Part shown: positions 32,201 through 63,317 of the stretch, in pieces
Layout: the number at the start of each line of letters is the position of its first letter
Position numbering within the stretch: position 1 is the stretch's first letter
Notes under the pieces: model-generated
What the model was told of the DNA's origin: nothing
What the model saw: the letters and a program-made list of their open reading frames with translations, nothing else
Databases searched by the model: none
Translations under genes and position numbers: made by a program
Virus record (IMG/VR): IMGVR_UViG_3300025809_001850
DNA: 64,000 nucleotides
DNA from: a virus
Lineage: Duplodnaviria > Caudoviricetes
Reading direction: 5' to 3' (one strand)

Positions 32201-33398
32201 TCCAATCGCACTGGGAGCAGCTGCAATTGCGTTACTTGGTATTGCATTAATTCCGTTTGGTGTTGCGGCTATTTTTGCGGGAGTAGGTGCAATGTTGATT
32301 GCAACTGCATTTACCGTAATGGTATCTGCGTTACAATTATTAACATTTGAAGATATAGCAAAAATTGCGTTGTTAGGAGCAACTTTTGTGGGACTTGGTG
32401 TAATGATACCATTTGTTATATTAGGAGCAGCTGCACTTGGAATAATGGGAGCCGCACTTCTTGCCTTTAGTGTTAGTGCATTATTTGCAAGTGTAGGAAT
32501 TACGGCATTAGCAATAGGTTTTGCAATATTATCTGCTTCTATTGCAACAATGGGTGAAAATAGTATAGCAGTATTGTTGTCACTTGGAATGATTGGTTTA
32601 TTAGCACCTATGTTCTTTATTGCATCGGCCGGAATACTTATGTTGGCAGGTGCAATTGCAGTAATGAGTGCGGCTTTGCTTGGAGCAAGTATAATGAGTA
32701 TGTTCTCAAGTGATGATCCATTTGCGATGTATATTAATTTAGGTGAAAATGCAGATAAATTAGATAAGGCTGCCAATGGTCTTAAAAATATTGCTTGGTC
32801 TATGTCTGCTTTATCAAATGTAGATGCAGAAGATATTCTAGGGGACATTGCAGATGGTATGGAAGAACTATTTGACGAAATTGAAGATATAGAAATTGAT
32901 GCAATAAATAAGTTCGTTTCTATCGGAACTAGTTTTGGTTTGATTGGTGCTGGAATGAACGAAATCAAAACTGGAATTGGTCCATTTAAAGAAATGCTTA
33001 CATTAATCAGTGATCCTGCTAACTACGAGGCCGCAATTGTCGGTATTAACTCATTAACTCTTGCTTTAACTGATTTGTGTAGTGTAATTCAAAGTTTAGG
33101 TGAATCTGAACTAGGAATCTTGGAAGTATCATCTGCCGAAGGAGGAGGAGGAGAAGCTCCTACCACCCAAGAAATGGCAGGAGGAGGTGCTGGTGCAGTA
33201 CCAATGACCACTGTGGTTCAACAAGTTGCATCTGTACCAGCTACATCTGGTGTAGCAATGAATTCTGCCGGTGGAGCAAGTAGCAATGGAGTTGAAACCC
33301 GACTTGATGAATTAATTTCATTAATGAAGTCTGGAAAGATAGGTGTTAACTTAGATGGTAAAAAAGTAGAGTCACAACTTGCGAAAACAGCACCATAA
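26247..33398 (+). CDS. tape measure protein
   Basis: 2383 aa; helical/coiled-coil, Ala/Gly-rich, periodic hydrophobic block near aa 1900-2150; canonical position after chaperone and before baseplate genes. Confidence 0.9.
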   Translation: MATIDESDFTNKQVDVKDHFAALQRTMINVQKIDTETIASQLSSLSEVMGSSMEALAEGKLEDKDHLDLQKYLDKLGLMAEEGANVIKAFNAYTKEVANSKDEEEALGKVIDANQASMKKINALETEREELINKVNNHNSITEELSNKINNVLERREQYQETSNNLVQKYNDKIEQVEQKLKAENSSQQDIAKLQQEKINLETKIGDVKDRTNRFLDNSLSLHEDLKTKLEQQQQLYEDAPNKIESINSKLRQEIAFNDIIKKDLENFSEGMEKFGLMTDKSRKAVEKVLGIDKDINKELKTSIDNQDKLTGKIDKTHQNSKNVLQTLENSVERTELLISDTTDFANEMGRAADEAERLLAATLAMQVGGRRRRTAAAEPNPFSINDSGQAEMQTPGGYTTTVSKGFAAAATAGMTLQASAMNSGGYISGPAGIDVIPAMLTNGEYVVNASATKKFLPLLEKINSGQSQSFASGGVVGNNPWTTAAHIEVPKYLSDIEKHLKELLGLSKEDASNSQKDIVNQSLYEEMVRNILQSKDQLFGHQTNINNGPGKEKGRFVLRDEKTGNFDMPSFKSSYPTGRPQLKDHEFWAADKKHFLEGPGDIYKDLQQETIKVFMENLHNNGTDFSKVDEKTIKADIAKQIQINLKAFETLYKGIEKENKVTNKIQGYQLEQGEAAGASPERKSDLVDALKQQADSMEFLKNAGVIGDDFGQRVEDTKRDQLVNSVFLYGLRDELTTAIKEGLYNDVGDIRKMLAQYKSPAELTELAQLGKTDVRSTDWTGREKPAFLQALDNLEKNKNLTPDFAEVSANQERQKGKTPISLGTHITQQIEKLRVKEDATKPGKSKPPRARGGGMSGSGGIRPGDGDQEYLQHFNKSIDVISNARQKANNEIFEITGDAAKFGATSVADFNSHIQSFWDSSTEALNEGQQHLKKAMVAVAETGEAGIRKLEQLAMQTTQTFSLVGNDLPTNLLNVRDATIDTLTSLKDATKGGSLLDMDLDSEINKLEELQKDQHQNIDSVLSAMANLTSMSNSGVLNTMASENKTERSSAISNLYDMMANQLQGKQDKSRRLSKNVGIDKATTAVNSLSTGGFVSGPMGKDVIPAMLTDGEYVIRADVAKNWRGFLEHLNTNGHLGLHRGGPVMLADGGAPGGGSGGGGGGGGGGGSGPDLSAMLSQLSKNNAEVQGMSHIFSEIVESVKKANEEGKTAEQLQALINIKVSDMQKMLDSELEMQGDLLNVTTKRLGQLKAMKDLKLSGVHDAVLGAFTAVEDKIDGILSSIPFVGSALAMSIKASTGPAFDELREGASEAFLAMADEINNNGRDIDSAMVVGMDRFKESATKAGEHMEMVGSFAKKIGPGMIAAGAAALGFVALLGMALKRFFDLEAKSLEFRQELGLAASSTKHIESAAAEVNQEMAGYGVNLDQAYEAATALTKELGSTMLVTKDQIKMVAMMNAGLGISADSAVGVYETFKNLSGGSSEVAKNLSLTTVALSTAAGVPLDQVMGDIAGASETVYAMSQGTGVELAVAAIEARRLGTNIESISSSMESALDFESSISNEMKMASMLGRHISMDAMRQAAFAGDQVKYMEEQQKVMGEIGDLSEMNMHQRKSIAAAMGMEVGELMKMQTQTKALAALENGTVAQKEALAKYQKQRNAALNGETKSLEEQGMEILKQQNAENVKADIMAKINSLMTDLGEVLLPVIQAGFKILMPILDAIFFVLKGVVKVVDFILTPFTLIADVISAINDDSDALKARFDGIVPTLITISGVIAGIGALFLGMGPMIGKLFSGMVTGAKKAFGFMQKGAKGAFGMLTGKDGAPTGADVTDKIKGMFGGDKTKSGDLVPDVDPKKGDKFKKFLDAFNKIDMSKIVKAAAALLILSGALWVSAKAFQEFSKVSWDGVAKGIIGLTALVVAAKFLEKGSTSMIKGAAAIGILGLALLPAALAFQMFSDVSWGGVLAGMIALGALAVVAMVLGNLIVPIALGAAAIALLGIALIPFGVAAIFAGVGAMLIATAFTVMVSALQLLTFEDIAKIALLGATFVGLGVMIPFVILGAAALGIMGAALLAFSVSALFASVGITALAIGFAILSASIATMGENSIAVLLSLGMIGLLAPMFFIASAGILMLAGAIAVMSAALLGASIMSMFSSDDPFAMYINLGENADKLDKAANGLKNIAWSMSALSNVDAEDILGDIADGMEELFDEIEDIEIDAINKFVSIGTSFGLIGAGMNEIKTGIGPFKEMLTLISDPANYEAAIVGINSLTLALTDLCSVIQSLGESELGILEVSSAEGGGGEAPTTQEMAGGGAGAVPMTTVVQQVASVPATSGVAMNSAGGASSNGVETRLDELISLMKSGKIGVNLDGKKVESQLAKTAP

Positions 33399-33435: not shown

Positions 33436-35976
33436 ATGGCTACACCTAGTTGGATTTCAAATATGTTTCCCGATCTCTTTAGTAACGGAGGACCAAAACC
33501 TAAGCCAAACGGAGAATTCACAGAGTTTACTGATCAAAGCAGTAGAACTAGTATGAAGTCAGGACGTGGATCAATGGAAGAAAAACTTGATCGTGGTCAA
33601 ACTATATATCGTGACGGAGCTCCGGTTCCTGGAGGAACATCAAAAAGTATCGATGACCAAACAAGAAATTTAGATGACAGAGGTACAGGTCAAGGTGTTA
33701 ATTTTTTCGGATATGGAAATACAACAAAGAAAAACCCATTTCTAAGTGGAAAACGTTCTGATGAATTGAATATAACCACAAACGCCAATTCAACTGGCCA
33801 GGTGGAAATCGGTGGATTTACCACAAAAAGCACTCCAATGATGGATTCTGATTATGGAAACGGAAATGTAAATTCCGCATCTGAGAATAGTTTTTATCGT
33901 AATAAAATGGATGTTACGAAATATGGAGATCAATACAAAGCACTTGGTAATCCGAATATAATTAGACTTACTCTTGGAGGTGAAGCAACAGAGAGACAAG
34001 AAGTTAAACCAGCAATAAACGGTGACCCACTTGGTTCAGTTCCACGGAAACTACCAAACTCAGATACGCAATTGGCAGGTCGTGGTAAAGGTGGTGGAGA
34101 TGCGTGGTTGAGCAAGTATTATTTTGATCAAACATATGGTGATCCTTATTCTCCTGTTAACATTGAGTCAAAAGTTGCGTATCCTGCACAAGGAAATGTT
34201 GCATCTGATAAATATATAACTCGTTTGCAAAATACTACCAACGAATCTCTTGATAACATTAGTGTCAGTAAACTAGGTGGACAACTTGATAAGTCATCGG
34301 GTGGAGGTAAAAACCAATCTTCGTCTGAAAAAAATATCATTCGTACGGTTACAATGAGTGGTACATTACCTGCACATAAAGGTGGAGGTATGGTATCAGG
34401 TGCATTGCAAATTGATAGTGGTAGTTTGTCTAACGCATCTCCGTTGTTGTCTGGACGAAGTGATATATCACCTGAACTAAACAAAAATTTTAAGGACATG
34501 GTATCAAACGGATTGTATGATACTCCAACAAGTGAAGGAAGAGACGGTAGTTCCGATAACTTAATTAACGGAAAACTTGACAAACTTCCTAATGATAAGC
34601 AGTTTGCTTCTAAAATTTCATCTAGACTCGGCATGGGTCTCGATGCTAGACGAAATGCTCCGTATCATCCCAATCCATCGAAACCACCCAACATACCTGG
34701 ACAAGACGAACTCACTCCTAATTCAGAAGAAAATTCACTTCCAAGAAGCAAGCAAATTTCGTATGTTGATGGTGTAGGTAAATCAACGGGAACCGTAAGT
34801 CTGGAAGATTCACTGGAACAATTCAATAAAGATTATAGTCAACGATTAAAAAGTATAGGAGAACTAAATTCACAAGATGATTTGAAAGTTTCTAATGACA
34901 TCAAAAATTTAGTTGATTTAAAAAAATTCGCAGATGACTCGTTTGAGAGAAGAACCAAAGAAGGACCAAGTTCGGGTGCTGAAGTTAAAACTTATGGTCA
35001 AAGATTTTATGATAATCCACTTCATTTAAACAAACGAAAACTTCCAAATTATAGTGGAGTTCCTAGTGGAGAAAACCCAGTAGACAATCCGAGAAAAGAC
35101 CCATTTAATATAAGAGGAGTGCTTGACGCAGAAAATCATTCATTATCAGCTGAACCAGATTTCGCATCGGAGGATTTTATTCCTTTGTATTTCCATGACT
35201 TGGTAAATAAAAAATATATCCCGTTTCGTGCATTGATACAAGGTACAACCGATCAATCTGATAGTAAGTGGTCTTCTACTCAATATTTAGGCCGTGCAGA
35301 CGAAGTTCATGTATACACAGGATTTACACGAACTCTGAGTATAGATTTTCAAGTAGTTGCACTTAGTGTTGAAGAACTACATCCAATGTGGCAACGAATA
35401 AATTATATGGTCGGTTTAACACATCCTGCCAAATACACAGAACATGATTTCATCGTTCCTCCATTCGTGAGATTTAATTTGGGTGACATATACAGAAATC
35501 AACCTGTACTGATCACATCAGTTTCAACCTCGATTCCGTCTGAAGTATCATGGGAACTTGTAAACAATGAAAAAAATAATGGAACACTCGAAAGAAATAA
35601 ATACGAATACGCAAACGGAGATATTAAACGAAAAGATGTCAAGGTGGCAAGATATCCAACTTCGTGTAATTTGCAAGTTTCAATGATAGTATTACAAAAA
35701 CATAGTCCCGAAACAAAGCAAAATCACTTTGGAGATAGTCCACTGCATAGTGATGGTAAAGGAAATTCTACCTTCAATGAAACTTTATCAACTTACACAG
35801 AAACATCTAAGGCTACACCTCCAAGTAAAGACGAACAAAGTTCTAGAAGTCGTGGACTAACGGCAGACACAGATGCAAAATCACAACGCAGTGCAGACGA
35901 ACGAGCAGGTGCGTTGTCAAAAAGTTCTAGAAGACAAGCACTTCAAAATTCTCTCGGTGGTCCTTTTAATTTATGA
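33436..35976 (+). CDS. baseplate/tail-tube initiator-like protein with long low-complexity N-terminus
   Basis: C-terminal FIPLYFHDLVNKKYIPFRA...YLGRADEVHVYTGFTRTLSIDFQVVA tube-like fold pattern; ATATTTAT at 33421-33428. Confidence 0.6.
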   Translation: MATPSWISNMFPDLFSNGGPKPKPNGEFTEFTDQSSRTSMKSGRGSMEEKLDRGQTIYRDGAPVPGGTSKSIDDQTRNLDDRGTGQGVNFFGYGNTTKKNPFLSGKRSDELNITTNANSTGQVEIGGFTTKSTPMMDSDYGNGNVNSASENSFYRNKMDVTKYGDQYKALGNPNIIRLTLGGEATERQEVKPAINGDPLGSVPRKLPNSDTQLAGRGKGGGDAWLSKYYFDQTYGDPYSPVNIESKVAYPAQGNVASDKYITRLQNTTNESLDNISVSKLGGQLDKSSGGGKNQSSSEKNIIRTVTMSGTLPAHKGGGMVSGALQIDSGSLSNASPLLSGRSDISPELNKNFKDMVSNGLYDTPTSEGRDGSSDNLINGKLDKLPNDKQFASKISSRLGMGLDARRNAPYHPNPSKPPNIPGQDELTPNSEENSLPRSKQISYVDGVGKSTGTVSLEDSLEQFNKDYSQRLKSIGELNSQDDLKVSNDIKNLVDLKKFADDSFERRTKEGPSSGAEVKTYGQRFYDNPLHLNKRKLPNYSGVPSGENPVDNPRKDPFNIRGVLDAENHSLSAEPDFASEDFIPLYFHDLVNKKYIPFRALIQGTTDQSDSKWSSTQYLGRADEVHVYTGFTRTLSIDFQVVALSVEELHPMWQRINYMVGLTHPAKYTEHDFIVPPFVRFNLGDIYRNQPVLITSVSTSIPSEVSWELVNNEKNNGTLERNKYEYANGDIKRKDVKVARYPTSCNLQVSMIVLQKHSPETKQNHFGDSPLHSDGKGNSTFNETLSTYTETSKATPPSKDEQSSRSRGLTADTDAKSQRSADERAGALSKSSRRQALQNSLGGPFNL

Positions 35977-36278: not shown

Positions 36279-39200
36279 ATGATACCAAAAAGTGTTAGTG
36301 GGTTGTTAAAAAAGAAAGCATCAGACATGATGCCATCTGGATTTGATTTTGGTCCACAAGAAAAGGAAGAAGAAGATTCTGACATTTCAAGTTTTTTAGA
36401 TAATAAGGATTTGAATCCGTTTTCTAAAATGAATAAACCGGATGCAAATTCAGTTAAAGACTTAATATCAGGTGGAGGAAGTTCAGGTGGAGGTGGTCTT
36501 GCGGGTGGATTTTCAAGTATGGTTGGAGGAGCTCTTGGTGCATTTGGACTGAGTGGTGGTTCGGCCAAAGATTTTAACGAAAAGATAACAAGTGAAACAA
36601 CCGCATCGGGTGGTGAAAAACCTTTACATGAAAGTAAAGACTCGGCAAAAGTAGAATTGCTATCAGAACAAGCTGACCCACCACCAAAAGGAACTCCGAT
36701 GGACGAATCGTTTCCGTCAGGAAACGCATCTCAATTCGGAACAACACACATCCGACCTTGGGTTCGGCATGAATTCATGAGACGAGAACGAAACATCGGT
36801 ATGAATTATACTGACAATGGAGAATATTCATCCCACTCAGGAGCTCCTATGGCCGGTGACGATGGTGAATTTTCTGAAAGTTATGAAGATACATTATATC
36901 GTGGTCCAAAAACAGCATGGATGCGTGTAGTTTCTAATTCAGTTGCTCCGGATCCAGATGATCCGACTGGAAGTAAACACATTTACGGATTTGAACTAGG
37001 TGGAGTTGCAAACTCAAATGCCAACACAGAAAGTGGTGCTGACCGATATGATTCGTTTGAGCAAATGTATGGATTTGATAAAAAAACAGGACAAGGAACA
37101 GGAAAAACATTCATGGGTTGGGGATATGATTCATCTGATAAGGGGAAAAAAATTCCTCATATGGTTGAAGAAGCAGATTTTTTTCATCGACCTTCACCGG
37201 GTATAAACTCAATCAAGTCAGAAGACAAAACACCAGGTGCAAATATCCGAGAAACAACCATATCATTTACTGTATTTAGTCGGTCACAACTTGATTATAT
37301 AGATGATTACTTTTTTAAACCAAGTTCAACTATGATTGTAGAGTGGGGTTGGAATACATATCCAAGAACCAACGCAGTAGATTATAGTATATTAGGTGAC
37401 ATTCCTGTAATGAAAAAAGGAAGTGAAGTTAAAAAAGACAAACTATTGGATAAGGTTAATTCACTTAGACTCATACATGAACAAAAAAAAGACCGATTAA
37501 CATACAAAGATTTAGAAGACGATGTAGAGTATTGTACAAAACGGGGAACTGGATTACTTGCATTATGGAATGATGCAGTTCATGTTAATAACAAACTAAA
37601 AGCTGGAAAAGGAAATTATGGATTTGCCGTTGGTGCGGTTAATAGTTATAGTTTTAATTTACGAGATGACGGTGGATATGATTGTGAAGTCAAGATATGC
37701 TCAATGGCAGCTTTTGGTATGATGACAAGTAATGATTCTTCTGCTAAAAAAGGTAAAAAAGAAAAAGATAAAAAGAAGGATCAAAACAAAGAAGACTTTA
37801 AGTATTTTATTGAAAACAAGTTGGATGAAATTCTTGCAGACGAAGGAGATGGAAATGATTGGTGGGATTGGGGAGATTCTGATGATCAAGAAAAACACGC
37901 TGCTAAAATGGCCAGTTCTGCGTATGGAAGATTTTTCCAATTTGATCAAAGTATTGGAGGTAAAGACGCATGGCACTCTGATCGTGAAGATTGTTATATA
38001 ACATTTGGTTATTTTATAGATATTGTTAATTTCTTTTTCTCAAAAAAAATGTCCGATTCAAAGGCCCAAGTTTTTCAATTTTCTGTGGGAGGTTGTAGGT
38101 GTGTTGCCCATCCTAATATAAAATCAACAGACGGAAAAGTGTTGCTTATACCAAATGCGATGTCACCTAGATACAATAAAGCAAAAAGTGGTGGATATAA
38201 AATGGGTGAAGGCAGTTACAAATCAGATGTAGAAGGAGTTATATCAGATGAATTATTTTCATCCGACACCTCTGGCAACGTACAAGATAGTTTTTTACAG
38301 GTGGTAAGTGCCGAAATAAATGAAGACGGGGGAAGTGCCAAGGTCAGATCATTAAGTGATGCTTTAAATGCGTCTCCACGTGATGATTTGTTTAGTTTGT
38401 TGAGTGCAGCTGCCAAACGAGCAGTTGAAAAGGGTGATTTACCTGACGGTGTCACCGAGTGTATGGTTAGACCGTTTCCTGATTATGCTACAATAGATAA
38501 ACAATCAACTGATGGATTTAGTGGTAGAATAAAAGATTTGTTTATCAACTATAATGTAATAAAAGACTCGGTTATAAACGGCCAGAATATAAAACAGATA
38601 ATTAAAGATGTATTGAAAAAGGTATCAACTGCAGCTGGAGGGATATGGGATTTTGATTTAGTAGGAGCAGATACAGCAACCGCAAATAGCACCACGATTT
38701 TAATTGTAGATAAACGATATGCAGGTTTAACTAATACATACGATTTGCAAAAAGAATCCCAAACTTGGAAATTTAAATCACACACTAAGAATAGTATCGT
38801 TAAATCATTATCTTTGGATATATCAATCTCCGATGAAACTGCAGCTCAGGCAATGTATCCTGAAGAAGAGCAAGGATCACAAGCAAACTTTCATTCACGT
38901 GGACGAAAAGACAGAATTTTAGATGGAACTGCTCAACAAATCGAGGCCTCCAAACCCGATAAAGATAAACCACCGGAAGATGAGGACGAGGACGAAGATG
39001 ACATAGAATCGGAAGAAAAATTCATCATCGGGCAACGCGTAGGTGCCCGTTGGATTGACATAGAATGTGTTGATCCGGATAAAAACAGAATGTTGAGTGG
39101 TATGAAAAAGGACAACAACAAAAAGAATAGTGTCAAAAACAATATTCCACTTGATGGATGTGAAGTGTCACTTGAATTAGACGGAATAGAAGGAGTGCGA

Positions 39201-39362
39201 ATACTTGACGTATTTACGTGTACTGGTGTACCAACAAGATATTATATGAATGGTCATTGGAGAGCACAAGAGGTATCACATGAAATATCAGACAATGATT
39301 GGAAAACAACAATAAAGGGTGAGTATCTACCAAGTCCAGATACAACTAATAAAGATGGATAA
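36279..39362 (+). CDS. large baseplate hub-like protein
   Basis: 1027 aa after the LysM gene; PSPGINSIKS, IVEWGWN, DGGYDCEVKI, WKTTIKG; synteny. Confidence 0.55.
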   Translation: MIPKSVSGLLKKKASDMMPSGFDFGPQEKEEEDSDISSFLDNKDLNPFSKMNKPDANSVKDLISGGGSSGGGGLAGGFSSMVGGALGAFGLSGGSAKDFNEKITSETTASGGEKPLHESKDSAKVELLSEQADPPPKGTPMDESFPSGNASQFGTTHIRPWVRHEFMRRERNIGMNYTDNGEYSSHSGAPMAGDDGEFSESYEDTLYRGPKTAWMRVVSNSVAPDPDDPTGSKHIYGFELGGVANSNANTESGADRYDSFEQMYGFDKKTGQGTGKTFMGWGYDSSDKGKKIPHMVEEADFFHRPSPGINSIKSEDKTPGANIRETTISFTVFSRSQLDYIDDYFFKPSSTMIVEWGWNTYPRTNAVDYSILGDIPVMKKGSEVKKDKLLDKVNSLRLIHEQKKDRLTYKDLEDDVEYCTKRGTGLLALWNDAVHVNNKLKAGKGNYGFAVGAVNSYSFNLRDDGGYDCEVKICSMAAFGMMTSNDSSAKKGKKEKDKKKDQNKEDFKYFIENKLDEILADEGDGNDWWDWGDSDDQEKHAAKMASSAYGRFFQFDQSIGGKDAWHSDREDCYITFGYFIDIVNFFFSKKMSDSKAQVFQFSVGGCRCVAHPNIKSTDGKVLLIPNAMSPRYNKAKSGGYKMGEGSYKSDVEGVISDELFSSDTSGNVQDSFLQVVSAEINEDGGSAKVRSLSDALNASPRDDLFSLLSAAAKRAVEKGDLPDGVTECMVRPFPDYATIDKQSTDGFSGRIKDLFINYNVIKDSVINGQNIKQIIKDVLKKVSTAAGGIWDFDLVGADTATANSTTILIVDKRYAGLTNTYDLQKESQTWKFKSHTKNSIVKSLSLDISISDETAAQAMYPEEEQGSQANFHSRGRKDRILDGTAQQIEASKPDKDKPPEDEDEDEDDIESEEKFIIGQRVGARWIDIECVDPDKNRMLSGMKKDNNKKNSVKNNIPLDGCEVSLELDGIEGVRILDVFTCTGVPTRYYMNGHWRAQEVSHEISDNDWKTTIKGEYLPSPDTTNKDG

Positions 39363-39786
39363 CGAAAAATACGGTGAAGATATAGTTGAATCAGCTGCCT
39401 ACAAGTTGTTGCTAGATCGATCAGGATCGTTGAAATCTAATGTTTTTAAAGCTTTTCCAACTGATAAAGTTATTACTCCATCAAAAGATGACTATGATAA
39501 AGGTATGATGACACGATACTTTGTTGCCAAGTCAAATGATATGCATTCTCAGATTTTTGAAGTAGATGCGTCTGGATATAAGCAATTTCAAAAGAACCCA
39601 TTTTATGTTGTTGCTCAAATGAGATGGAAAATTACAGGTCCTGTTAGAAGTGTATATGATCGTGGTATTTTAAAAAATCGTGGAGTAACTGATTTTAATA
39701 TGGTGTCGTATGAACAAATTCAACTAACGATGCCTAAAATTGACACCAAAATATCTTCGTTACTTCAATTTTACAAATCAGATTGA
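39355..39786 (+). CDS. conserved hypothetical protein
   Basis: Likely start at ATG 39355 (MDNEKY...), overlapping the previous stop; RYFVAK...RWKITGP. Confidence 0.6.
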   Translation: MDNEKYGEDIVESAAYKLLLDRSGSLKSNVFKAFPTDKVITPSKDDYDKGMMTRYFVAKSNDMHSQIFEVDASGYKQFQKNPFYVVAQMRWKITGPVRSVYDRGILKNRGVTDFNMVSYEQIQLTMPKIDTKISSLLQFYKSD

Positions 39787-39811
39787 CAAACGGAGTTCGA
39801 TATAGTATATT
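39783..39811 (+). promoter_or_regulatory. sigma70-like promoter upstream of DNA polymerase
   Basis: TTGACA (39783-39788), 17 nt, TATATT (39806-39811). Confidence 0.7.
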
Positions 39812-39817
39812 AAGTGA

Positions 39818-41116
39818 ATGTCAATTTATGTTGAGTCGTTGAATGATTTACAAGAATATCAATCAATTGTAACACACGGAACTTGTTTTTTTCATTTTAT
39901 ATACAATGAAAAAATACATCCTTCAAAAACTTCACCTATTGTGTTGTTTGTTCACCACTTTGATACACATGAGACATATGTATTTTCGTTTTCTCATCCT
40001 GATATAATTTGTATTAATCCAGACATTTTACAAATTGTACTGAATGTTCCGTGTAAAAAACTAATTTTTGACAAAAAAAATGCCAGACATTTTGCAAACT
40101 TGAATAATTTTATTGATATCAAGTTTGATAATTATGCAAAGACATTAAACGAATTGTATGTTAAATTACCAAATGTAACTGACATAAGATCGTGTCCAAT
40201 TATGATCATTAAAAAAAGTTTCAACGATACCTTGGAACTTTTAAAAAATAAAATAGAATATGTTGATATAGAGCAATGTGAGTTTGAAGACGATTTCTCA
40301 AAGCAATTATCTATGATTGAGTCAAATGGCATTCATGTTGATAGACGCACATTTAATTTAGCAGATCATGTGGTAATTGATGAACAAGATTGTGTACATA
40401 GTCAGTACAATATGCTTACCCCAACCTACAGACCAAGCAACCGATTTGCAAAAATCAATTTTGCAGCTTTGAATAAAAAGAAAAATGAAAGAGATTGTAT
40501 TTGTAGTAGGCACGATGAGGGTGCGATAGTTATGATTGATTATGAAAGTTATCACTTACGACTATTTGGAACTCAGGTTGGATTTGATTTACCCAAAACA
40601 TCTTTACATGAGTATCTTGGTTGTTTGTATCACGACAAAGATACACTAACAGAAGAGGAATACGAACTTTCAAAAAAGATAACTTTTAATATAATGTACG
40701 GAGGAGTGTCTGATGATATTAAAGAAAATATTCCGTTTATGAACCAGATCGCATTGTATGTAGAAAAATTGTGGAGAGAATATAATTCACTTGGATATGT
40801 TAAAACGTGGTTTTACAAAAAGAAACTTAGAAAATCTACATACGGAGAATTAAATCCATATAAACTTTTTAACTATGTATTACAGAATGCCGAAACAGAA
40901 CGAAATTGTTTAATGATGAAGAAAATTAATGAAGAAATTAAATCTACCGACATTAAATTTATTTTATATCACTATGACGCATTTATATTTGATATGAAAT
41001 TTTCCGACTTTCATTATGTTGAAAATATTAAAAATTCATTGATAGATGATGGAATGTATCCTGTGAAAATATACGCAGGTGGTAACTACGGAGATTTAAA
41101 ATTAATCAATGTTTAG
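39818..41116 (+). CDS. polA: compact family A DNA polymerase
   Basis: RPSNRF, motif A MIDYESYHLRL, motif B SKKITFNIMYG, motif C LYHYDAFIFD; only 432 aa. Confidence 0.8.
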   Translation: MSIYVESLNDLQEYQSIVTHGTCFFHFIYNEKIHPSKTSPIVLFVHHFDTHETYVFSFSHPDIICINPDILQIVLNVPCKKLIFDKKNARHFANLNNFIDIKFDNYAKTLNELYVKLPNVTDIRSCPIMIIKKSFNDTLELLKNKIEYVDIEQCEFEDDFSKQLSMIESNGIHVDRRTFNLADHVVIDEQDCVHSQYNMLTPTYRPSNRFAKINFAALNKKKNERDCICSRHDEGAIVMIDYESYHLRLFGTQVGFDLPKTSLHEYLGCLYHDKDTLTEEEYELSKKITFNIMYGGVSDDIKENIPFMNQIALYVEKLWREYNSLGYVKTWFYKKKLRKSTYGELNPYKLFNYVLQNAETERNCLMMKKINEEIKSTDIKFILYHYDAFIFDMKFSDFHYVENIKNSLIDDGMYPVKIYAGGNYGDLKLINV

Positions 41117-41171
41117 AACTTCGAGTGATATTTATATACATATATTAATTTTTAAATGGTTATATAATTTT

Positions 41172-41570
41172 ATGAAAACACAGCTCCTTTGCACATTCTC
41201 CGATATAAAAAATTACAGAAACGTTGCAGGAAATATAGATACATTCTACAAAATAGTTTTTGGTAAGATATATGTTTTACAAAACACAGATGATGTTGAC
41301 GAAGTGTTGCTGACATATAATATAGATGCTACTACATCACCATCTAACTCTTTCTTTCCAAACACAATAAGTGTTCACAGAAAAAAAGATTCCAACACAC
41401 TATACACAATAAATTCATTAAATGAGTTGATTAAAAAACTCAATAATGATGTGTTGGACACACATTTTTTAGTAAATTGGAAAGATTACTTCAATTCAAT
41501 ATTACTAACTGATCCGGTGCATGGAGTAAGAATTGTACCAACAAAACTACATCAAATAATAAAAATTTGA
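41172..41570 (+). CDS. conserved hypothetical protein
   Basis: Likely start at ATG 41172 (MKTQLLCTF...); NTISVHRKKDSNTLYTINSLN; ATATTTAT at 41128-41135. Confidence 0.65.
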   Translation: MKTQLLCTFSDIKNYRNVAGNIDTFYKIVFGKIYVLQNTDDVDEVLLTYNIDATTSPSNSFFPNTISVHRKKDSNTLYTINSLNELIKKLNNDVLDTHFLVNWKDYFNSILLTDPVHGVRIVPTKLHQIIKI

Positions 41571-41578
41571 TTTAATAT

Positions 41579-41607
41579 TTGACTCACTAACAAAAAAAAT
41601 ATAAGGT
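41579..41607 (+). promoter_or_regulatory. sigma70-like promoter upstream of prkA operon
   Basis: TTGACT (41579-41584), 17 nt, TAAGGT (41602-41607). Confidence 0.5.
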
Positions 41608-41608
41608 A

Positions 41609-43717
41609 ATGGTTATGGAAAATAAAAAGAGACACGAAAAGCAAACAGAAAAGAGTAAAAACACTCTCGAATCGTTAATTAGGTCTGACAATGATGATTC
41701 AGTAAAAACATACGAATCTTTGAATTGGACAGGTACTTTTTGGGATTACATTGAATTGTTGGAGCAGAATCCAAAGATTGCTCGTAATTCGTATCAAAGA
41801 TTGTACGACATGGTTATGTCACATGGTACAGAAGAATTTACATATTGTAAACGTAAACACATCAAATATAAATTCTTTGAAGGTCTCGGCGATATTTCTA
41901 TTTATGGTCTAGAAGAAAACTTGATGGAGTTTATGGATATTTTAAAAAGTGCAAGTCGGCACTACGGACCAGAACGAAGAGTTATATTATTACATGGACC
42001 TGTAGGTAGTAGTAAGTCAACAATTGTAACTGCACTCAAGAAGGGGCTAGAGCATTACACCCGAACCGAAGAGGGGTCATTGTACTCTTTTAGTTGGAAA
42101 CTAACTGATAAAGACGGCAATGACATCGTAGTTCCATGTCCGATGAACGAAGAACCTTTAAAACTTTTACCTGACGAGGTTCGTACTGAAATTATCAGTA
42201 ATCTAAATTCCAAAGCATCTGATGACGATTACAAATTGAAATTGGATGGTGCGTTGAATCCAGTAAACGAGTTTTACTACAATCAACTCATGGAAATGCA
42301 CAAAGGTGACTATCGTAAAGTGCTTGAACATATTGTTATACGTCGTGTGTCTCTATCCGAAAAGAATCGTGTCGGCATTGGTACGTTCCAACCAAAAGAT
42401 GAAAAATCACAAGACGCAACTGAACTCACAGGTGATATCAATTACCGAAAGTTAGCAGAGTATGGAAGTGAAAGTGATCCACGTGCATTTGATTTTGATG
42501 GTGAGTTTTTGGTTGCTAATCGTGGACTTATTGAATTTCAAGAAATTCTCAAGTTACAAACCGAGTTTCTATATGATCTTCTTGGAGCAACTCAAGAGCA
42601 TCGTGTTAAACCACGTCGTTTCAACCAAGTACCAATTGACGAAGTTATTCTTGGTCATACTAACAATGCTGAGTTTGAAAAGTTAACCAACAATAAGTTC
42701 ATGGAAGCACTTCGTGATAGAACAATTAAAATCGACATTCCTTATCTTTTGAAGATTGACGAAGAAAAGAAGATTTATGATCACTTCTATAATACAAGCA
42801 CCGTAAACAAGCATATTGCTCCTCATACAACTTATTTGGCTGCGTTATTTGCAGTTGTAAGTCGTTTAGAAGAAAGTTCCAAGCAAGATATGGGTATCAT
42901 TCAGAAAGCAAAACTTTACAACGGCCAAAGTGTGCATGGATTCACAGATGAACACGTAAAGGAAATGCAAGAAGAATCTCCGAAAGAAGGATTATATGGT
43001 GGAGTTTCTGCACGATTTATTCAGAATCAGTTTTCCAACGCAATCGTCAATCCTAGAATGGGTGCAAAAAGTTTGAATCCGTTTATGTTGTTTGCTCAAA
43101 TTCGAGAAGGCCTTAAAAGTTATAGTGGATTCAATAACGAAGATGACAAAAAGAATATGATGGAACGACTTGAGTCTGTAGAAAAAGAATACGATAGAAT
43201 TGTTAAACGAGAAGTTCAACAAGCACTTAGTAGCAGTGAAGAAGCAATAAAAGCAACTTGTACAAACTATATTGATAACATCGTTGCGTATATTCAAGAC
43301 GAAAAAGTTACTAATCTGGTTACCGGTAAAGAAGAAACTGCAAACGAACAACTTATGCGTAGCATAGAAGAAAAAATTGGTATTTCCAATGGCATGAAGG
43401 ACGATTTCCGTAGAGAGATTATGAATTACATGGGTGGACTTGCCGCTAAGGGTAAAGAGTTTAAATACGACTCTAACGAGCAATTATACAAAGCACTTGA
43501 AAAGAAGTTGTTTGAAGATACCAAAGATAGCATAAAGTTATCTGCTCTTGCTCAAGATACCGCAACTGTTGTTGACAAAGAACTTCTTGAAAAGATTGAT
43601 GCTTTGAAGCAACGACTTATTACTTCATTTGGATATGATACAGATAGTGCTTCAGATGTTCTTACTTATGTTGGAAGTATTTTTGCGAGAGGTGATGCGG
43701 ACGAAGACGAAGATTAA
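41609..43717 (+). CDS. prkA: PrkA/YeaG family AAA+ 'serine protein kinase'
   Basis: ARNSYQRLYDMV, Walker A LLHGPVGSSKST, FQPKDEKSQDATELTG, SDPRAFDFDGEFLVANRGLIEFQEILK, MEALRDRTIKIDIPY; start could be 41615. Confidence 0.93.
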   Translation: MVMENKKRHEKQTEKSKNTLESLIRSDNDDSVKTYESLNWTGTFWDYIELLEQNPKIARNSYQRLYDMVMSHGTEEFTYCKRKHIKYKFFEGLGDISIYGLEENLMEFMDILKSASRHYGPERRVILLHGPVGSSKSTIVTALKKGLEHYTRTEEGSLYSFSWKLTDKDGNDIVVPCPMNEEPLKLLPDEVRTEIISNLNSKASDDDYKLKLDGALNPVNEFYYNQLMEMHKGDYRKVLEHIVIRRVSLSEKNRVGIGTFQPKDEKSQDATELTGDINYRKLAEYGSESDPRAFDFDGEFLVANRGLIEFQEILKLQTEFLYDLLGATQEHRVKPRRFNQVPIDEVILGHTNNAEFEKLTNNKFMEALRDRTIKIDIPYLLKIDEEKKIYDHFYNTSTVNKHIAPHTTYLAALFAVVSRLEESSKQDMGIIQKAKLYNGQSVHGFTDEHVKEMQEESPKEGLYGGVSARFIQNQFSNAIVNPRMGAKSLNPFMLFAQIREGLKSYSGFNNEDDKKNMMERLESVEKEYDRIVKREVQQALSSSEEAIKATCTNYIDNIVAYIQDEKVTNLVTGKEETANEQLMRSIEEKIGISNGMKDDFRREIMNYMGGLAAKGKEFKYDSNEQLYKALEKKLFEDTKDSIKLSALAQDTATVVDKELLEKIDALKQRLITSFGYDTDSASDVLTYVGSIFARGDADEDED

Positions 43718-43737
43718 TAGTCAACGAATACATCATT

Positions 43738-44892
43738 ATGCCATCACGCAGAATCAGAGAAGACCACGGTGAGTACAGAGATATCGTCAAGGGAAATGTT
43801 GACGAGAAACTCAAAAAGCACATCAAAGGTGGTCAAAAAATAACACGAAGAGGAAAAGACTTTGTTGTTGTTCGTGTACCTCATGTAGAACTTCCAAGTT
43901 TTCGCTACGGAGCTCCATCCGATGGTGGTGGTATTGGTAACGGAGAGGCTGGTATAGGAGACGAGGTAGGTGAAGGACCACCTCAAGGGCAGGGTCAAGG
44001 TGGCCAACCTGGTGAAGGTGGTGAAGGAGAGGGTGACGGTCACGACATTGATGTGGGTATAAGCATGGATTCTTATTTTGATATGATCGGTGAAGAACTG
44101 CGTCTACCAAATCTTCTGCCCAAAGAAAATGGGGAAATGATCAAAGAAAAAATCAAATGGAATCGTATTGCTAAAGTTGGAAACAATAGTTTATTACACA
44201 AACGAAAAACTCTAAAAAATGCATTCAAACGATTAATAGCATCAGATGATTATGATCCTAAAGATTTGTCTAATTTTTATCCTATTAAAGATGACAAAGA
44301 GTTTAGAAGTTGGAGTTCAGTTGAAGTACCTGATACAAACGCCGCAATCTTTTTTGTATCGGATATATCTGCAAGTATGGATGATGAAAAACGTTCGTTG
44401 ATTCGTGAATTATGTTGGTATCTTGAAAATTGGATTGAACGATTTTACCAAGAAACTCAAATCAAGTATATCGTCCACGATCACCATGCACAAGAAGTTG
44501 ATAAAGAAAAGTTCTACAAATACCAAAGTGGAGGAGGAACAAAAATCAGTAGTGCATTTGAATTGGTAAACGATGTAATTGAAAAAGCATTTCCCTTGAA
44601 TGAATGGAACATTTATGTATTTTATTTGAGTGATGGAGAAAACTTTGGTTCTGACAATGATTTGTGTGTTGAACATTTAAAAAAAATGCAGACTTATGCA
44701 AATCTAGTAGGAATAACAGAAGTTAAAGCAGTAAGAAGTTGGGCAACATTTCTTCCCCATATTCAATCACAACTTACAACGGGGAATCTAGACCCTAACA
44801 AGATAGTAACCGCATCAATGCAGGATGGTTCGGATGTTTTTAAAACACTTCAAAAGTTATTAACACCTGCCGGAGAAGAAGTACCTTTTTAA
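43738..44892 (+). CDS. yeaH: YeaH/YhbH (DUF444) vWA-domain protein
   Basis: Gly-rich GQGQGGQPGEGGEG linker, LRLPNLLPK, MIDAS DISAS, GGGTKISSAF, YLSDGEN. Confidence 0.92.
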   Translation: MPSRRIREDHGEYRDIVKGNVDEKLKKHIKGGQKITRRGKDFVVVRVPHVELPSFRYGAPSDGGGIGNGEAGIGDEVGEGPPQGQGQGGQPGEGGEGEGDGHDIDVGISMDSYFDMIGEELRLPNLLPKENGEMIKEKIKWNRIAKVGNNSLLHKRKTLKNAFKRLIASDDYDPKDLSNFYPIKDDKEFRSWSSVEVPDTNAAIFFVSDISASMDDEKRSLIRELCWYLENWIERFYQETQIKYIVHDHHAQEVDKEKFYKYQSGGGTKISSAFELVNDVIEKAFPLNEWNIYVFYLSDGENFGSDNDLCVEHLKKMQTYANLVGITEVKAVRSWATFLPHIQSQLTTGNLDPNKIVTASMQDGSDVFKTLQKLLTPAGEEVPF

Positions 44893-44896
44893 TATT

Positions 44897-46462
44897 ATGG
44901 GAATTGCATGGGAAGTAGATAGTTTAAACGAAGGAGTATGTCCAGAGTTGGCAGCTCTTATACCTGAATGCTTAAAGGCGTGTTACGATAATGGACTTGA
45001 TCCATATCCGTTGTGTATTGAAGAATTTGATGCAGATGAAATAGTTGAGATTGCCGCTTATGGTGGTTTTCCTGTTCGTTATCCACACTTTAATTTCGGA
45101 CAACAATTTGAGCAATTGCATCATCAGTATCACTCTGGTATGGGCAAGATTTATGAGATGGTTGTAAATACCGATCCAACTTATATGTATCTTCAACGAA
45201 ACAATCCTATCGTTGATAATCTTACCGTTGTTGCACACGCAACTGCACATAGTGATTTTTTCAAAAACAACATTATGTTCAAGCACACGAATCGTAATAT
45301 GATGAATGTGATGGCAAATCATAGTGATAAAATTCGTATGTATATGGATCGGTTTGGTCGCAAAAAAGTTAAAGACTTTTTGAATGCAGCTCTTGCAATT
45401 GATGATTTAATTGATCCATCACTTTGTTATCGTGAAAGTAATTTAAAGAAAGCAACTAAATTCAACTTTGAAGATCGTCAACCAAGAGAACACGTTTCTC
45501 GTATGGAAACGAAAGAATATATGCAGAAGTATGTTAATCCTGCACATTATATTGAAAAGCAAAGACGAGAGCGTGAAGAACGAACAAAGTTAGCAGAAAA
45601 CAAATTTCCACTTCGACCTGAACGAGATATTATGTTGATGATTATCAACCATTGTCGTTTAGAACCCTGGCAACAGAATGTGCTTAGTATGATTCGTGAT
45701 GAATCTATTTATTATCGTCCACAAGGAATGACAAAAGTTCTCAACGAAGGATGGGCAAGTTATTGGGATTCTTATATCATGGCAAGTTGTAACTTTGCGG
45801 GAGACGAAGGAATCTTTGATTACGCAAAACACCACGCAGGAGTTCTTGGTGGAAAATACAATATGAACAATCCATATAAACTTGGAAATACTTTATTGCG
45901 TGACATCGAAGATCGTTGGAACAAAGGAAAGTTTGGTAAAGAATATGAAAATTGCGACAACGGAGATGAAAAAAGATATTGGAACAAACATCTTGGTCTT
46001 GGTCGTGAAAAACTTTACGAAGTTCGTGAAATGTATAATGATGTAACATTTCTTAATGAATTTTTCACAAAAGATTTCTGTGAAAAATATGAATACTTTG
46101 AATATGCACTTGATAAATCAACCAACAAATATGTAGTTGTAAGTAAAGACTACAAATCAATCAAACAGAAGTTAGTTGAACGTCATGTTAATATGGGACG
46201 ACCTGTCATATACATGGAAAACATGAAATACAAAAATACAGAAATTTTACTTAGACACGATTTTGATGGCAGACCACTTGATATTAAATACGCAACGGGT
46301 ACAATGGCATACCTTCATGAGATTATGAAAAAACCAATTAACATCCTTACATACGATGTAGAATCAGAAGGATATGGAAATGAAAAAGAGTCAGTTGAAG
46401 TAGAAGTTCGTTATCGTTACAATAATGGAGAAATGAAACGATACGAAGGTGGTAAAGTTTGA
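44897..46462 (+). CDS. spoVR: SpoVR/YcgB family protein
   Basis: GGFPVRYPHFNFG, GKIYEMVVN, VVAHATAHSDFFKNN, TKVLNEGWASYW, NPYKLG. Confidence 0.93.
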   Translation: MGIAWEVDSLNEGVCPELAALIPECLKACYDNGLDPYPLCIEEFDADEIVEIAAYGGFPVRYPHFNFGQQFEQLHHQYHSGMGKIYEMVVNTDPTYMYLQRNNPIVDNLTVVAHATAHSDFFKNNIMFKHTNRNMMNVMANHSDKIRMYMDRFGRKKVKDFLNAALAIDDLIDPSLCYRESNLKKATKFNFEDRQPREHVSRMETKEYMQKYVNPAHYIEKQRREREERTKLAENKFPLRPERDIMLMIINHCRLEPWQQNVLSMIRDESIYYRPQGMTKVLNEGWASYWDSYIMASCNFAGDEGIFDYAKHHAGVLGGKYNMNNPYKLGNTLLRDIEDRWNKGKFGKEYENCDNGDEKRYWNKHLGLGREKLYEVREMYNDVTFLNEFFTKDFCEKYEYFEYALDKSTNKYVVVSKDYKSIKQKLVERHVNMGRPVIYMENMKYKNTEILLRHDFDGRPLDIKYATGTMAYLHEIMKKPINILTYDVESEGYGNEKESVEVEVRYRYNNGEMKRYEGGKV

Positions 46463-46465: not shown

Positions 46466-47221
46466 GTGAGTCCAAACACAAATCAAGTATATCAATTAGA
46501 TAATTTAGAGTTACTTGGTAGATTAGATACCGAGTCTATAAATTTAATTTATTGTGACATCTTATACGGAACAGGTAAAAAGTTTAAAGATTATCAAGAT
46601 TTACCGGCTGAACGACATACCATAGATTCTCATTATATTCCTCGGTTACATGAAATGAAACGAGTATTGAAATCAAACGGAACAATTTATTTACAAATGG
46701 ATTTACGTATAGTTCACTGGATTCGCATGATTATGGATAATGTGTTTGGATATGAAAATTTCAGAAATCAAATTGTGGTAAAGTTTAATATAGGTGGTCG
46801 TGGCAAACGAGAGTTTGCCAAAAAGCACGATTACATTATAGTGTATACAAAATCTGATGAATTTGTGTTTAATGATCTTGATATACGAGTTCCGTATAAA
46901 TCTGTCATAAGCAAAAAACAGACTAGACCTAATATTACCGAAGAGAAATTAAAAATTGGAACGATACCTACAAATGTTTGGGATGATATTCCATCTGGAT
47001 TAAAAGTGAAGAAGGCAACTGACTATTATAGTGAGAAACATCCTAAGATTTTAGAAAGAATTATCAAAGCAAGTAGTAACGAAGGTGATGTGGTAGGTGA
47101 CTTTTATTGTGGAAGTGGCACTACGTTGGCAGTTGCCAAGTCGTTGAATCGCAACTTTATCGGTTGTGATATTAATGCAGATGCTGTTCGTATTTCCACC
47201 GAACGAATGTTGCAAAAATAG
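46466..47221 (+). CDS. amino (N6-A/N4-C) DNA methyltransferase, beta-class order
   Basis: GTG start; motif IV variant YCDILYGTG, LKSNGTIY, EKHPKILERIIKASSNEGDVVGDFYCGSGTT (motif I), FIGCDIN. Confidence 0.85.
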   Translation: MSPNTNQVYQLDNLELLGRLDTESINLIYCDILYGTGKKFKDYQDLPAERHTIDSHYIPRLHEMKRVLKSNGTIYLQMDLRIVHWIRMIMDNVFGYENFRNQIVVKFNIGGRGKREFAKKHDYIIVYTKSDEFVFNDLDIRVPYKSVISKKQTRPNITEEKLKIGTIPTNVWDDIPSGLKVKKATDYYSEKHPKILERIIKASSNEGDVVGDFYCGSGTTLAVAKSLNRNFIGCDINADAVRISTERMLQK

Positions 47222-47333
47222 TTCAAATATTTGTCTTGAAAACGACACAAAATTGAGTTAGAATATATTTATATATAAGCATTAATTCGTTAATGTTTAT
47301 CACACACACAAGCACACAAAAATCTATTAATAA

Positions 47334-54938: not shown

Positions 54939-55940
54939 ATGAACGCAAGCAAACTTCTTTTAGTAGTGGCCTTATCGGCAATTTCAATTAACATTTCAAC
55001 AGGAGCACCAAGTGCTAAACAAGTACGAGAAGTTGCAGACCATTTACAAGATGTATCGGTCACTATAAAAGCAAAAGCAAAGTATAGTAGTTCAGAAGGC
55101 TCTGGTGCTATGATCATTCGTGAAGTAGACGGAAAAAAAGTTACGTTTGTTTGGACGGCCGCACACGTTGTTGATAATCTTCGCAAGGTAAGAAGTGTTA
55201 TTGAAGGTGGTAGACCCATTAAAATTGTGGAATTTGAAGATGCATCTATTGTAAAAGAACTCGTAGAAAAAGGCAGACGGGTTGGTGAAATGAAAATGGA
55301 TGCGAAAGTAATCAAATATTCAGATTACAACGATGGTCACGATTTGGCACTTCTTATGGTTCGTGCTACTGATTATGCGAAAGAAGGAGTTGAATTTAAT
55401 TTAAGTGATGCTAATGATGGTATTGTACCAATTGGAACAAGTTTATTTCATGTTGGTTCGTTGCTTGGTCAGATGGGTGCAAACTCAATGACAACTGGTA
55501 TCATTTCTCAAGTAGGAAGAACACTTGATAAATACGAATACGATCAAACAACGGTTACTGCATTCCCAGGAAGTTCAGGAGGTGGAGTTTATTTGCAAAA
55601 TGGAAAGTATGTAGGAATGATTGTTCGTGGAGCAGGAGAAGGATTCAATTTAATGGTTCCTGTTCGTAGAATGAAAGCATGGGCAAAAAAGAATGATATT
55701 ATGTGGGCAATTGATCCAAAGGAAGATATGCCAAGCATGGATGATATCCTTGGAATGCAAATTGAAGACTCTGGAGTTATTCGTAGTGCAGACGATGACG
55801 AGGACGATGAAAAATCAATTCAAAGGCATTTTCCGTTTCGCATTAAAATTCTTCCAAATCAACGAGAACGAAATCCGGAGAGAGTATTAAAACAATTACC
55901 TCTTGAAGATTTCACTCCTAAATTTGAGTTGAAGTATTGA
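54939..55940 (+). CDS. exported trypsin-like serine protease
   Basis: Signal-peptide-like N-terminus; catalytic triad motifs TAAHV, DLALL, PGSSGGG. Confidence 0.88.
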   Translation: MNASKLLLVVALSAISINISTGAPSAKQVREVADHLQDVSVTIKAKAKYSSSEGSGAMIIREVDGKKVTFVWTAAHVVDNLRKVRSVIEGGRPIKIVEFEDASIVKELVEKGRRVGEMKMDAKVIKYSDYNDGHDLALLMVRATDYAKEGVEFNLSDANDGIVPIGTSLFHVGSLLGQMGANSMTTGIISQVGRTLDKYEYDQTTVTAFPGSSGGGVYLQNGKYVGMIVRGAGEGFNLMVPVRRMKAWAKKNDIMWAIDPKEDMPSMDDILGMQIEDSGVIRSADDDEDDEKSIQRHFPFRIKILPNQRERNPERVLKQLPLEDFTPKFELKY

Positions 55941-59913: not shown

Positions 59914-59947
59914 TATAAACCATATCGTTATTATATTCGTTATATAC

Positions 59948-59977: not shown

Positions 59978-59990
59978 TAATGTAACGGTT

Positions 59991-61238: not shown

Positions 61239-61239
61239 T

Positions 61240-63315: not shown

Positions 63316-63317
63316 TT

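Follow-up and report, generated by a model that had tools for sequence, protein, structure and literature searches.

A prkA-yeaH-spoVR gene block of marine T4-like phages and its possible role in starvation-type proteolysis

PrkA (YeaG), YeaH and SpoVR (YcgB) make up one of the most widespread bacterial modules without agreed biochemistry, and the occurrence of all three genes in a phage raises the question of what a virus might gain from them. We analysed this gene trio in a 64,000-nucleotide stretch of viral DNA (IMG/VR record IMGVR_UViG_3300025809_001850, Caudoviricetes; hereafter the window), where it occupies positions 41579-46462 together with the sequence directly before prkA. An initial annotation, made from the sequence alone, had described the locus as a whole host starvation or dormancy machine and as a candidate for an undescribed system. 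The module proved to be intact, while an override of dormancy or signalling is now retained as a rival explanation. Our preferred reading, to which we would grant slightly less than an even chance, is that the trio is a starvation-proteolysis machine run by the phage, which may turn over host protein.

A gene block kept by marine T4-like phages

The three genes are full-length, co-oriented and tightly spaced, with gaps of 20 nt between prkA and yeaH and 4 nt between yeaH and spoVR, and each product matches its Pfam family (Table 1), in agreement with the initial annotation; the motifs quoted there, GPVGSSKST, DISAS...T...D and EGWASYW, all occur in the translations. A terminator scan of the region found no plus-strand terminator between the trio genes. 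The window belongs to a bona fide T4-like marine myophage. Its genes all lie on one strand and its GC content is even (0.33-0.38); the terminase large subunit, portal, major head protein and tail sheath genes lie 5' of the trio, and those for a DNA methyltransferase (methylase), a gp32-like protein, RecA, a 5'-3' exonuclease, a DnaB-like helicase and ribonucleotide reductase lie 3' of it. In its major capsid protein, the phage shares about 52% identity with Flavobacterium phage vB_FspM_immuto and Microcystis phage Mel-JY01, and 37% with Rhodothermus phage RM378. The locus had been placed between polA and ssb/recA: the gp32-like and RecA genes are indeed found downstream, while a polA gene upstream is not supported, as the open reading frames (ORFs) there have no family match.

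A scan of IMG/VR returned 168 viral stretches with relatives of the window PrkA, and 80 loci were examined. The PrkA-YeaH-SpoVR order and strand were the same in all of these that had enough DNA. About 30 independent viral contigs keep the whole neighbourhood, comprising a small upstream ORF, the trio, the methylase, orf76, gp32, RecA and the exonuclease; the trio proteins are 80-98% identical in these loci, while the products of the genes just upstream are only 32-76% identical. Since close relatives 161-170 kb long are rated 80-84% complete, the genome should measure about 200 kb, and the trio can be described as a core gene block kept by a clade of marine T4-like phages of this size. The ratio of non-synonymous to synonymous substitution rates (dN/dS), obtained by the pairwise Nei-Gojobori method for the window versus 24-28 relatives, was 0.046 for PrkA, 0.065 for YeaH and 0.049 for SpoVR, to be compared with 0.052 for gp32, 0.050 for RecA, 0.07-0.08 for the exonuclease gene (gaps excluded) and 0.20-0.25 for two upstream ORFs. 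Purifying selection on the trio is then as strong as on gp32 and RecA.

Contigs from four metatranscriptome libraries (three studies) tile all three trio genes at 90-99% identity and span the junction between the small upstream ORF and PrkA. Their coverage is very uneven, gp32 being far deeper and positions 39400-41000 absent, and for this reason RNA fits better than DNA carry-over. The trio is likely expressed in the sea, such contigs being in themselves no proof of transcription, of its strand or of its timing.

That the locus is passenger DNA, a misassembly or a recent neutral capture is barely credible. Nothing beyond the bacterial ancestry of the genes speaks for it, while the same flanks are shared by about 30 independent IMG/VR contigs, the window DNA is present in many marine metagenomes, with at least 14 DNA runs containing 80-100% of its words, the trio does not differ from the phage in GC content, identity to the nearest cellular homologues is no higher than 52-56%, and dN/dS is about 0.05. 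Contamination is excluded by the shared flanks, the DNA runs, the phage-like GC and the low dN/dS. The initial annotation had foreseen three objections, namely host contamination, lack of transcription and relaxed selection, and these are countered by the shared flanks, the RNA-library contigs and dN/dS values of 0.046-0.065, respectively. As had been proposed, the phage carries the whole host-type module intact; the composition of the module is that of the phage, and purifying selection on it is strong. The presence of genes of host type among phage genes, kept across a lineage under selection, as observed here, is what characterises an auxiliary module.

The nearest cellular PrkA proteins (one genome per species was considered) belong to Myxococcota, Bdellovibrionota, Planctomycetota, Chloroflexota and other phyla, and the three-gene order of the window recurs at 51 of 80 cellular loci. 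In a maximum-likelihood tree of PrkA, 46 viral sequences formed one clade apart from all 76 cellular ones, with a Shimodaira-Hasegawa-like approximate likelihood ratio test (SH-aLRT) value of 99 and a FastTree support of 0.999. This clade consists of two branches, the window clade and a sister branch with the 595-kb LR756511 and IMG/VR contigs of up to 572 kb. Viral monophyly could be inflated by long-branch attraction, and no donor lineage can be named because each viral branch, when analysed alone, joins a different cellular lineage with weak support. A common viral origin is supported by the derived acidic PrkA tail shared by both branches. Several huge sister-branch contigs encode a T4-like capsid protein 41-46% identical to that of the window, and the capsid protein of a third group, which includes a complete 222-kb genome, is 32% identical to it. 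The locus can be regarded as an anciently captured bacterial prkA-yeaH-spoVR operon, now adapted to the phage.

The phage trio encodes the same three Pfam families, with conserved catalytic-type residues, as the bacterial operon (yeaG-yeaH plus ycgB in E. coli, prkA-yhbH plus spoVR in B. subtilis), but it resides in a lytic-type T4-like phage with about 36% GC and belongs to a virus-only clade at most 56% identical to cellular sequences. In the sister branch, the huge-phage block (LR756511, IMG/VR) has the order Zn-ribbon-PrkA-YeaH-SpoVR-ClpP: of 43 loci, 35 have an FmdB-type zinc-ribbon gene just before prkA, and 22 have ClpP on the same strand no more than 1.5 kb after spoVR. Both neighbours are absent from the window clade, and each was found at 0 of 80 cellular loci. 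The sister-branch ClpP adjoins the DNA polymerase III alpha gene and not the head module. Some of the sister-branch loci (L039-L082 and L002, i.e., LR756511) contain insertions of 1-5 kb between the trio genes.

A megablast search of the locus against phage records gave no match; tblastn gave PrkA matches in 17 phage records, 16 of which matched SpoVR as well. The only PrkA record with no SpoVR match is Enterobacter phage LAU1 (MN688132.1, 30.8 kb), in which "YeaG" stands at the very beginning (190-1821); possibly this is host DNA at the edge of a prophage or of the record. Among phages, the trio was first recorded in 2006, for the cultivated Thermus phage phiYS40 (with TMA), whose genes YS40_056, 057 and 059 encode DUF444, SpoVR and PrkA, as confirmed by Pfam. 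The genes of phiYS40 are arranged as DUF444-SpoVR-(unknown gene)-PrkA, their products are only 21-32% identical to the window proteins, and the position of phiYS40 PrkA apart from the window clade in the tree suggests a separate acquisition. The cultivated Ralstonia jumbo phage RsoM2USA carries a complete PrkA-DUF444-SpoVR operon (ORF30-29-28) in the same order as the window; this trio, like that of phiYS40 a separate and more distant copy, is of the gammaproteobacterial YeaG/YcgB type, 25-26% identical to the window proteins and hypothetical in GenBank, and for SpoVR and PrkA the RsoM2USA paper goes no further than the best BLAST hit (PMC8504454). PHROGs includes families for all three proteins, with function unassigned there, and spoVR was reported as the most abundant "sporulation" auxiliary metabolic gene in viromes of a Pacific oxygen minimum zone, where it was read as sporulation control (PMC8940887). 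In view of phiYS40, RsoM2USA, the 16 of 17 PrkA records, PHROGs and the marine spoVR genes, the system cannot be called undescribed, as had been suggested; the trio was already known in phages, and this locus is another occurrence, neither rare nor new.

The three proteins and a predicted SpoVR-YeaH complex

PrkA matched PF08298 (E 2.6e-84) and PF06798 (E 1e-69) over nearly the full profile lengths, and the solved chain 9xip_A over residues 30-694 (E 6.5e-213). The PDB entries 9xip, 9xiq and 9xir describe this PrkA homologue of 692 residues in 30 chains under the name "Serine protein kinase"; a literature search found no paper on the 9xip homologue. The Walker A motif GPVGSSKST and the Walker B-type NRGxIEFxE block (NRGLIEFQE) are intact, and of the 270 columns with a conservation of 95% or more among 76 cellular homologues, 222 are retained by PrkA of the window clade. 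The C-terminal tail is acidic in both viral branches (ARGD-A/V-x-D-E-D; ARGDADEDED in the window, 43690-43717), whereas the cellular tail is basic (ARGDVKS or similar); the acidic tail is a possible MIDAS ligand for the von Willebrand factor A (vWA) domain of YeaH.

YeaH matched PF04285 with an E-value of 8.6e-66 as a whole, 4e-12 for residues 1-130 and 4e-47 for residues 180-384. The protein consists of a conserved N-terminal helix, a Gly/acid-rich linker modelled with low confidence and a C-terminal vWA domain with a metal ion-dependent adhesion site (MIDAS), the motifs of which appear in the translation as DISAS...GGGT...SDGEN. The MIDAS residues D209, S211, S213, T268 and D299 are invariant in 48 sequences. 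In the AlphaFold2 model, with a predicted local distance difference test (pLDDT) score of 74, the vWA domain is confidently modelled, and a Foldseek search returned 326 PDB matches at E <= 0.001, all of them vWA or I-domains.

SpoVR matched PF04293 (E 1e-107) and was modelled by AlphaFold2 with a pLDDT of 82. Residues H64, E87, H114, H118 and E284 are invariant across 53 sequences as well as in the phiYS40 and RsoM2USA copies, which are only 24-26% identical, and so is NPY325-327. H114-x3-H118 lies on a long helix and E284 starts another helix within the block NEGWASYW, which presumably resembles the third-ligand block of M1 peptidases. In the model, this His/Glu arrangement would correspond to the layout of a gluzincin site. 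When the model was submitted to an exhaustive VIA-align search (wide mode), the top 50 matches were almost all zincin metallopeptidases, at Z 7-10.7, a range that is middling by the tool's own scale: DUF885 (10.7), lugdulysin of family M30 (9.8), M1 aminopeptidases (8-9.5) and thermolysin (7.3). Further matches included M61, collagenases, M32, M3 and the zincin-like YbeY RNases (Z 5.7-6.7). A zincin-like metallohydrolase fold of SpoVR is thus a lead, not proof. With permissive settings, a Pfam scan of parts of SpoVR and YeaH detected no peptidase family and only a weak VWA_2 match (E 0.11); searches of AlphaFold Database clusters with the SpoVR model retrieved SpoVR-family entries only, and no paper linking SpoVR or YcgB to zincins or metallopeptidases was found in the literature search. 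Classification of SpoVR as a zincin (HExxH) peptidase was rejected, as the defining test failed on the absence of the catalytic Glu.

Co-folding of SpoVR with YeaH gave ipSAE interface scores of 0.80, 0.82 and 0.79, as compared with 0.00 for the best of three controls. The mark applied to this score was reached by 58 of 80 solved complexes and by 2 of 110 mismatched pairs, counts that hold only roughly here because alignments of our own were used in the co-folding. At least 85% of the contacts were common to the runs, and partner pLDDT was at least 73. The predicted interface involves YeaH residues 2-16, 44-83 and 104-107 and SpoVR residues 47-80, 163-171, 320-325 and 398-472, including the SpoVR loop with the invariant R61, P63, H64 and G68, which is disordered in the monomer model; the invariant D9 of YeaH is set against H64 of SpoVR. 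SpoVR is therefore predicted to bind the N-terminus of YeaH, whose vWA domain lies outside this interface.

Candidate function and rival explanations

If the trio does run starvation-type proteolysis, PrkA, YeaH and SpoVR would constitute one ATP-driven machine for protein remodelling or degradation. PrkA would be the hexameric clade-III AAA+ motor, YeaH the adaptor, whose N-terminal segment would clamp SpoVR and whose vWA/MIDAS would stay free for a second ligand (PrkA or the substrate), and SpoVR would supply a metal-dependent hydrolase site. In the infected cell, such a machine would imitate the bulk cytoplasmic proteolysis that depends on YeaG (SpdA) in starvation, so that phage synthesis in nutrient-poor seawater could draw on host protein for amino acids and energy, with the beta-oxidation genes and the peptidase of the phage (Table 1) possibly acting alongside the machine. 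In this scheme we infer that PrkA joins the complex, and likewise the substrate, the catalysis and the advantage gained by the phage.

PrkA of B. anthracis has been assigned to AAA+ clade III, like FtsH and YME1 (PMC13001217). The trio genes show high mutual cofitness in six bacteria, with amino-acid-use phenotypes, and the cofitness of the three argues for one pathway (bioRxiv 10.1101/072470). YeaG of E. coli, renamed SpdA, is required for the starvation-induced, largely non-specific degradation of cytoplasmic protein (2026; PMC13684143), which yields amino acids and ATP for new synthesis (PMC13684143). B. subtilis PrkA was reported to be not a kinase and to hydrolyse casein in an ATP-dependent manner (PMC9512850). 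The link to proteolysis is drawn from the E. coli phenotype, the casein result and the ClpP linkage in the sister branch. The mechanism, initially annotated as unresolved, is less open in the light of the cofitness data (bioRxiv 10.1101/072470) and of YeaG-dependent proteolysis (PMC13684143).

Several observations nevertheless weigh against such a machine. The window clade itself has no adjacent ClpP. Purified B. anthracis PrkA showed no detectable protease or kinase activity, and its authors put the earlier casein result down to a possible contaminant (PMC13001217). Identity between the window PrkA and the YeaG-type or Thermus-phage copies amounts to only about 26-32%, with about 26% for the YeaG-type protein of RsoM2USA, so that applying the E. 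coli phenotype to the window protein is an extrapolation. In SpoVR, the His pair occurs as H114-A-T-A-H118 (consensus H-A-x-G-H), with Ala family-wide at the position of the HExxH Glu; Foldseek found nothing significant in the PDB for the SpoVR model, the VIA-align scores are middling, and the matches include YbeY RNases. The co-folding score expresses the model's own confidence and its calibration is rough, the RNA-library contigs bear on expression with the limits given above, and the literature search found no functional study of any phage copy of the trio.

A bolder version of the proposal, which we hold to be rather doubtful, would make the trio a previously unrecognised three-part ATP-dependent hydrolase, in which PrkA is the unfoldase, SpoVR is a degenerate zincin-like metal enzyme, completed or gated at its active site by the invariant N-terminus of YeaH, and ClpP extends the machine in some phages. 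Large marine phages would liquidate the host proteome with a virus-only lineage of this machine, which would be the viral counterpart of starvation-induced "bacterial autophagy". The FtsH/YME1-type AAA+ metalloproteases and the MoxR-vWA systems are comparable by analogy only, through the combination of a clade III AAA+ motor, a zincin-like module and a vWA adaptor. The trio differs in consisting of three separate polypeptides and in having no HExxH Glu in SpoVR, and its protease activity is putative.

The trio might instead take over host signalling: PrkA, as a Ser/Thr kinase or regulatory ATPase with YeaH and SpoVR, would rewire stationary-phase, nitrogen-starvation or dormancy regulation with no bulk proteolysis, keeping the infected cell metabolically active or shifting it to a favourable state. 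YeaG/PrkA proteins have long been described as kinases and tied to the RpoS and NtrC regulons, and Price et al. proposed a conserved signalling pathway (bioRxiv 10.1101/072470). Deletion of prkA in B. anthracis shifts sporulation-gene transcription, and the pure protein lacks protease activity (PMC13001217); on the other hand, kinase activity was not reproduced with either B. subtilis (PMC9512850) or B. anthracis PrkA (PMC13001217), and the 2026 E. coli work ascribes the phenotype to global protein degradation (PMC13684143). As the ClpP linkage in sister phages and the hydrolase-like SpoVR also point to catalysis on macromolecules, we consider a takeover of signalling, with either outcome for the cell, unlikely.

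AAA+/vWA pairs typically act on specific clients, and this counts in favour of a targeted, MoxR-vWA-like chaperoning of a few of them, such as assembly intermediates of large capsids or host defence and regulatory proteins, with SpoVR processing the client. Such a role, which might serve remodelling or counter-defence, does not appear very likely to us either. It would agree with the occurrence of the trio mainly in large and huge phages (about 150-600 kb), with the free vWA MIDAS in the predicted SpoVR-YeaH complex and with the species-dependent phenotypes of the cellular trio (bioRxiv 10.1101/072470). However, structural relatives as close as immuto, whose capsid protein is about 52% identical, gave no PrkA match, which indicates that the trio is dispensable for the assembly of this virion type; 70-kb Thermus phages also carry the trio, and no defence-related neighbour was seen at the locus, where no Padloc search was made. 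Considerably less probable is that SpoVR acts on a non-protein substrate, either RNA, as YbeY does, or cell-wall precursors, in ribosome or RNA turnover or envelope remodelling. The YbeY metallo-RNases among the fold matches likewise have no HExxH glutamate, and B. subtilis spoVR mutants are described as defective in spore cortex; against this, peptidases dominate the SpoVR fold list with higher scores, the E. coli phenotype is a loss of protein (PMC13684143), and signal peptides, judged by eye only, are absent from all three proteins.

Transcription, genomic setting and significance

The single sigma70-like promoter initially annotated before the trio did not hold up. TTGACT (41579-84) and TATAAG (41600-05) are separated by a 15-nt spacer, TATAAGG coincides with the ribosome-binding site, and the -10-like hexamer ends 4-10 nt ahead of the start codon. 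A sigma70 scan returned no site of standard spacing directly before prkA, and promoter-like matches in the region were rarer than in shuffles (36 versus 43.9). In an alignment of 11 relatives, the intergenic element shows an invariant TTGAC, an A-rich spacer and (T/A)ATAAGGT, which is best read as the ribosome-binding site of prkA; ATG 41615 is invariant and ATG 41609 variable, the former being the more likely start codon.

A different motif, TATTTATA, is a candidate phage promoter. Counted on both strands, this 8-mer is present 14 times versus 5.5 expected; 11 sites are on the plus strand of the window, 8 of them intergenic or just before ORFs, and several of the ORFs behind such sites are structural genes. 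Among 29 relatives, 13 have an exact copy 460-485 nt before PrkA, and 28 have the motif 800-841 nt past the spoVR stop. The sites at 41129 and 47266 would therefore delimit a likely transcription unit made up of the small ORF, prkA, yeaH, spoVR and the methylase. The methyltransferase, syntenic in all close relatives, is probably the last gene of this unit and outside the module proper. In one subgroup of the window clade (IMG/VR relatives L024-L026), an exact TATTTATA between prkA and yeaH, about 15 nt before the latter, suggests an internal promoter there. The T4 late motif TATAAATA was found at only three plus-strand sites in the window, none of them near the trio.

The small upstream ORF is syntenic in about 30 relatives at 53-72% identity, with a dN/dS of 0.20, and a comparison ruled out that it is the zinc-ribbon gene that precedes prkA in the sister branch. 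No tRNA genes were found in the window. Three very large ORFs past the tail genes presumably encode baseplate or fibre proteins; none of the three had a Pfam match, and the two that were run against PHROGs, of 846 and 1027 aa, had no match there. An antisense ORF within the largest of them is probably spurious. A trypsin-like serine peptidase gene is located between two ribonucleotide reductase subunit genes. The end of the window holds a run of catabolic host-type genes (58595-63998), which is a near-complete fatty-acid beta-oxidation set in a phage.

Table 1. Positions of the trio, its neighbours and other features of the window
Feature	Position	Strand	Length	Remarks
prkA	41609-43717	+	702 aa	PF08298 and PF06798; probable start ATG 41615
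yeaH (DUF444)	43738-44892	+	384 aa	PF04285
spoVR	44897-46462	+	521 aa	PF04293; C-terminal alpha/beta domain beyond the predicted zincin-like fold
Conserved intergenic element	41579-41608	+		Before prkA
Small upstream ORF	41109-41570	+	153 aa as listed; 132 aa from ATG 41172	No Pfam or PHROG family match
N6/N4 DNA methyltransferase	46466-47221	+		PF01555, E 6.6e-44; 3 nt past spoVR
TATTTATA motif	41129-41136	+		Candidate phage promoter; before ATG 41172, likely true start of the small ORF
TATTTATA motif	47266-47273	+		After the methylase; marks the next unit (orf76, gp32-like)
TATTTATA sites, intergenic, 10-170 nt before ORF starts	8439, 8445, 16622, 16651, 23576, 33422, 41129, 47266, 56417	+
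Very large ORF	26247-33398		2383 aa
Antisense ORF	31370-32968	-	532 aa	Inside the 2383-aa ORF
Very large ORF	33436-35976		846 aa
Very large ORF	36279-39362		1027 aa	Upstream of the trio; no Pfam or PHROG family match
Upstream ORF	39818-41116			No Pfam or PHROG family match
Trypsin-like serine peptidase	54939-55940			PF13365/PF00089
Ldh_2-family dehydrogenase	58595-59698			Catabolic, host-type
Thiolase	59991-61238			Catabolic, host-type
FadB-like enoyl-CoA hydratase/3-hydroxyacyl-CoA dehydrogenase	61240-63315
Acyl-CoA dehydrogenase	63318-63998			Start only; continues beyond the window

What makes the locus valuable is not its occurrence but the leads it gives on mechanism and its connection with the starvation proteolysis programme. 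The long retention of the trio under strong selection in large phages argues for a self-sufficient machine, useful in a host that is being turned into virions. Concrete targets for mutagenesis are available in the phage copies, in the predicted SpoVR-YeaH complex and in the His/Glu cluster of SpoVR, and the cultivable carriers phiYS40 and RsoM2USA make the question testable. If the proteolysis reading is true, host protein, and in this phage lipid too, would be mobilised as nutrients by marine phages, with a bearing on the course of infection in oligotrophic water.

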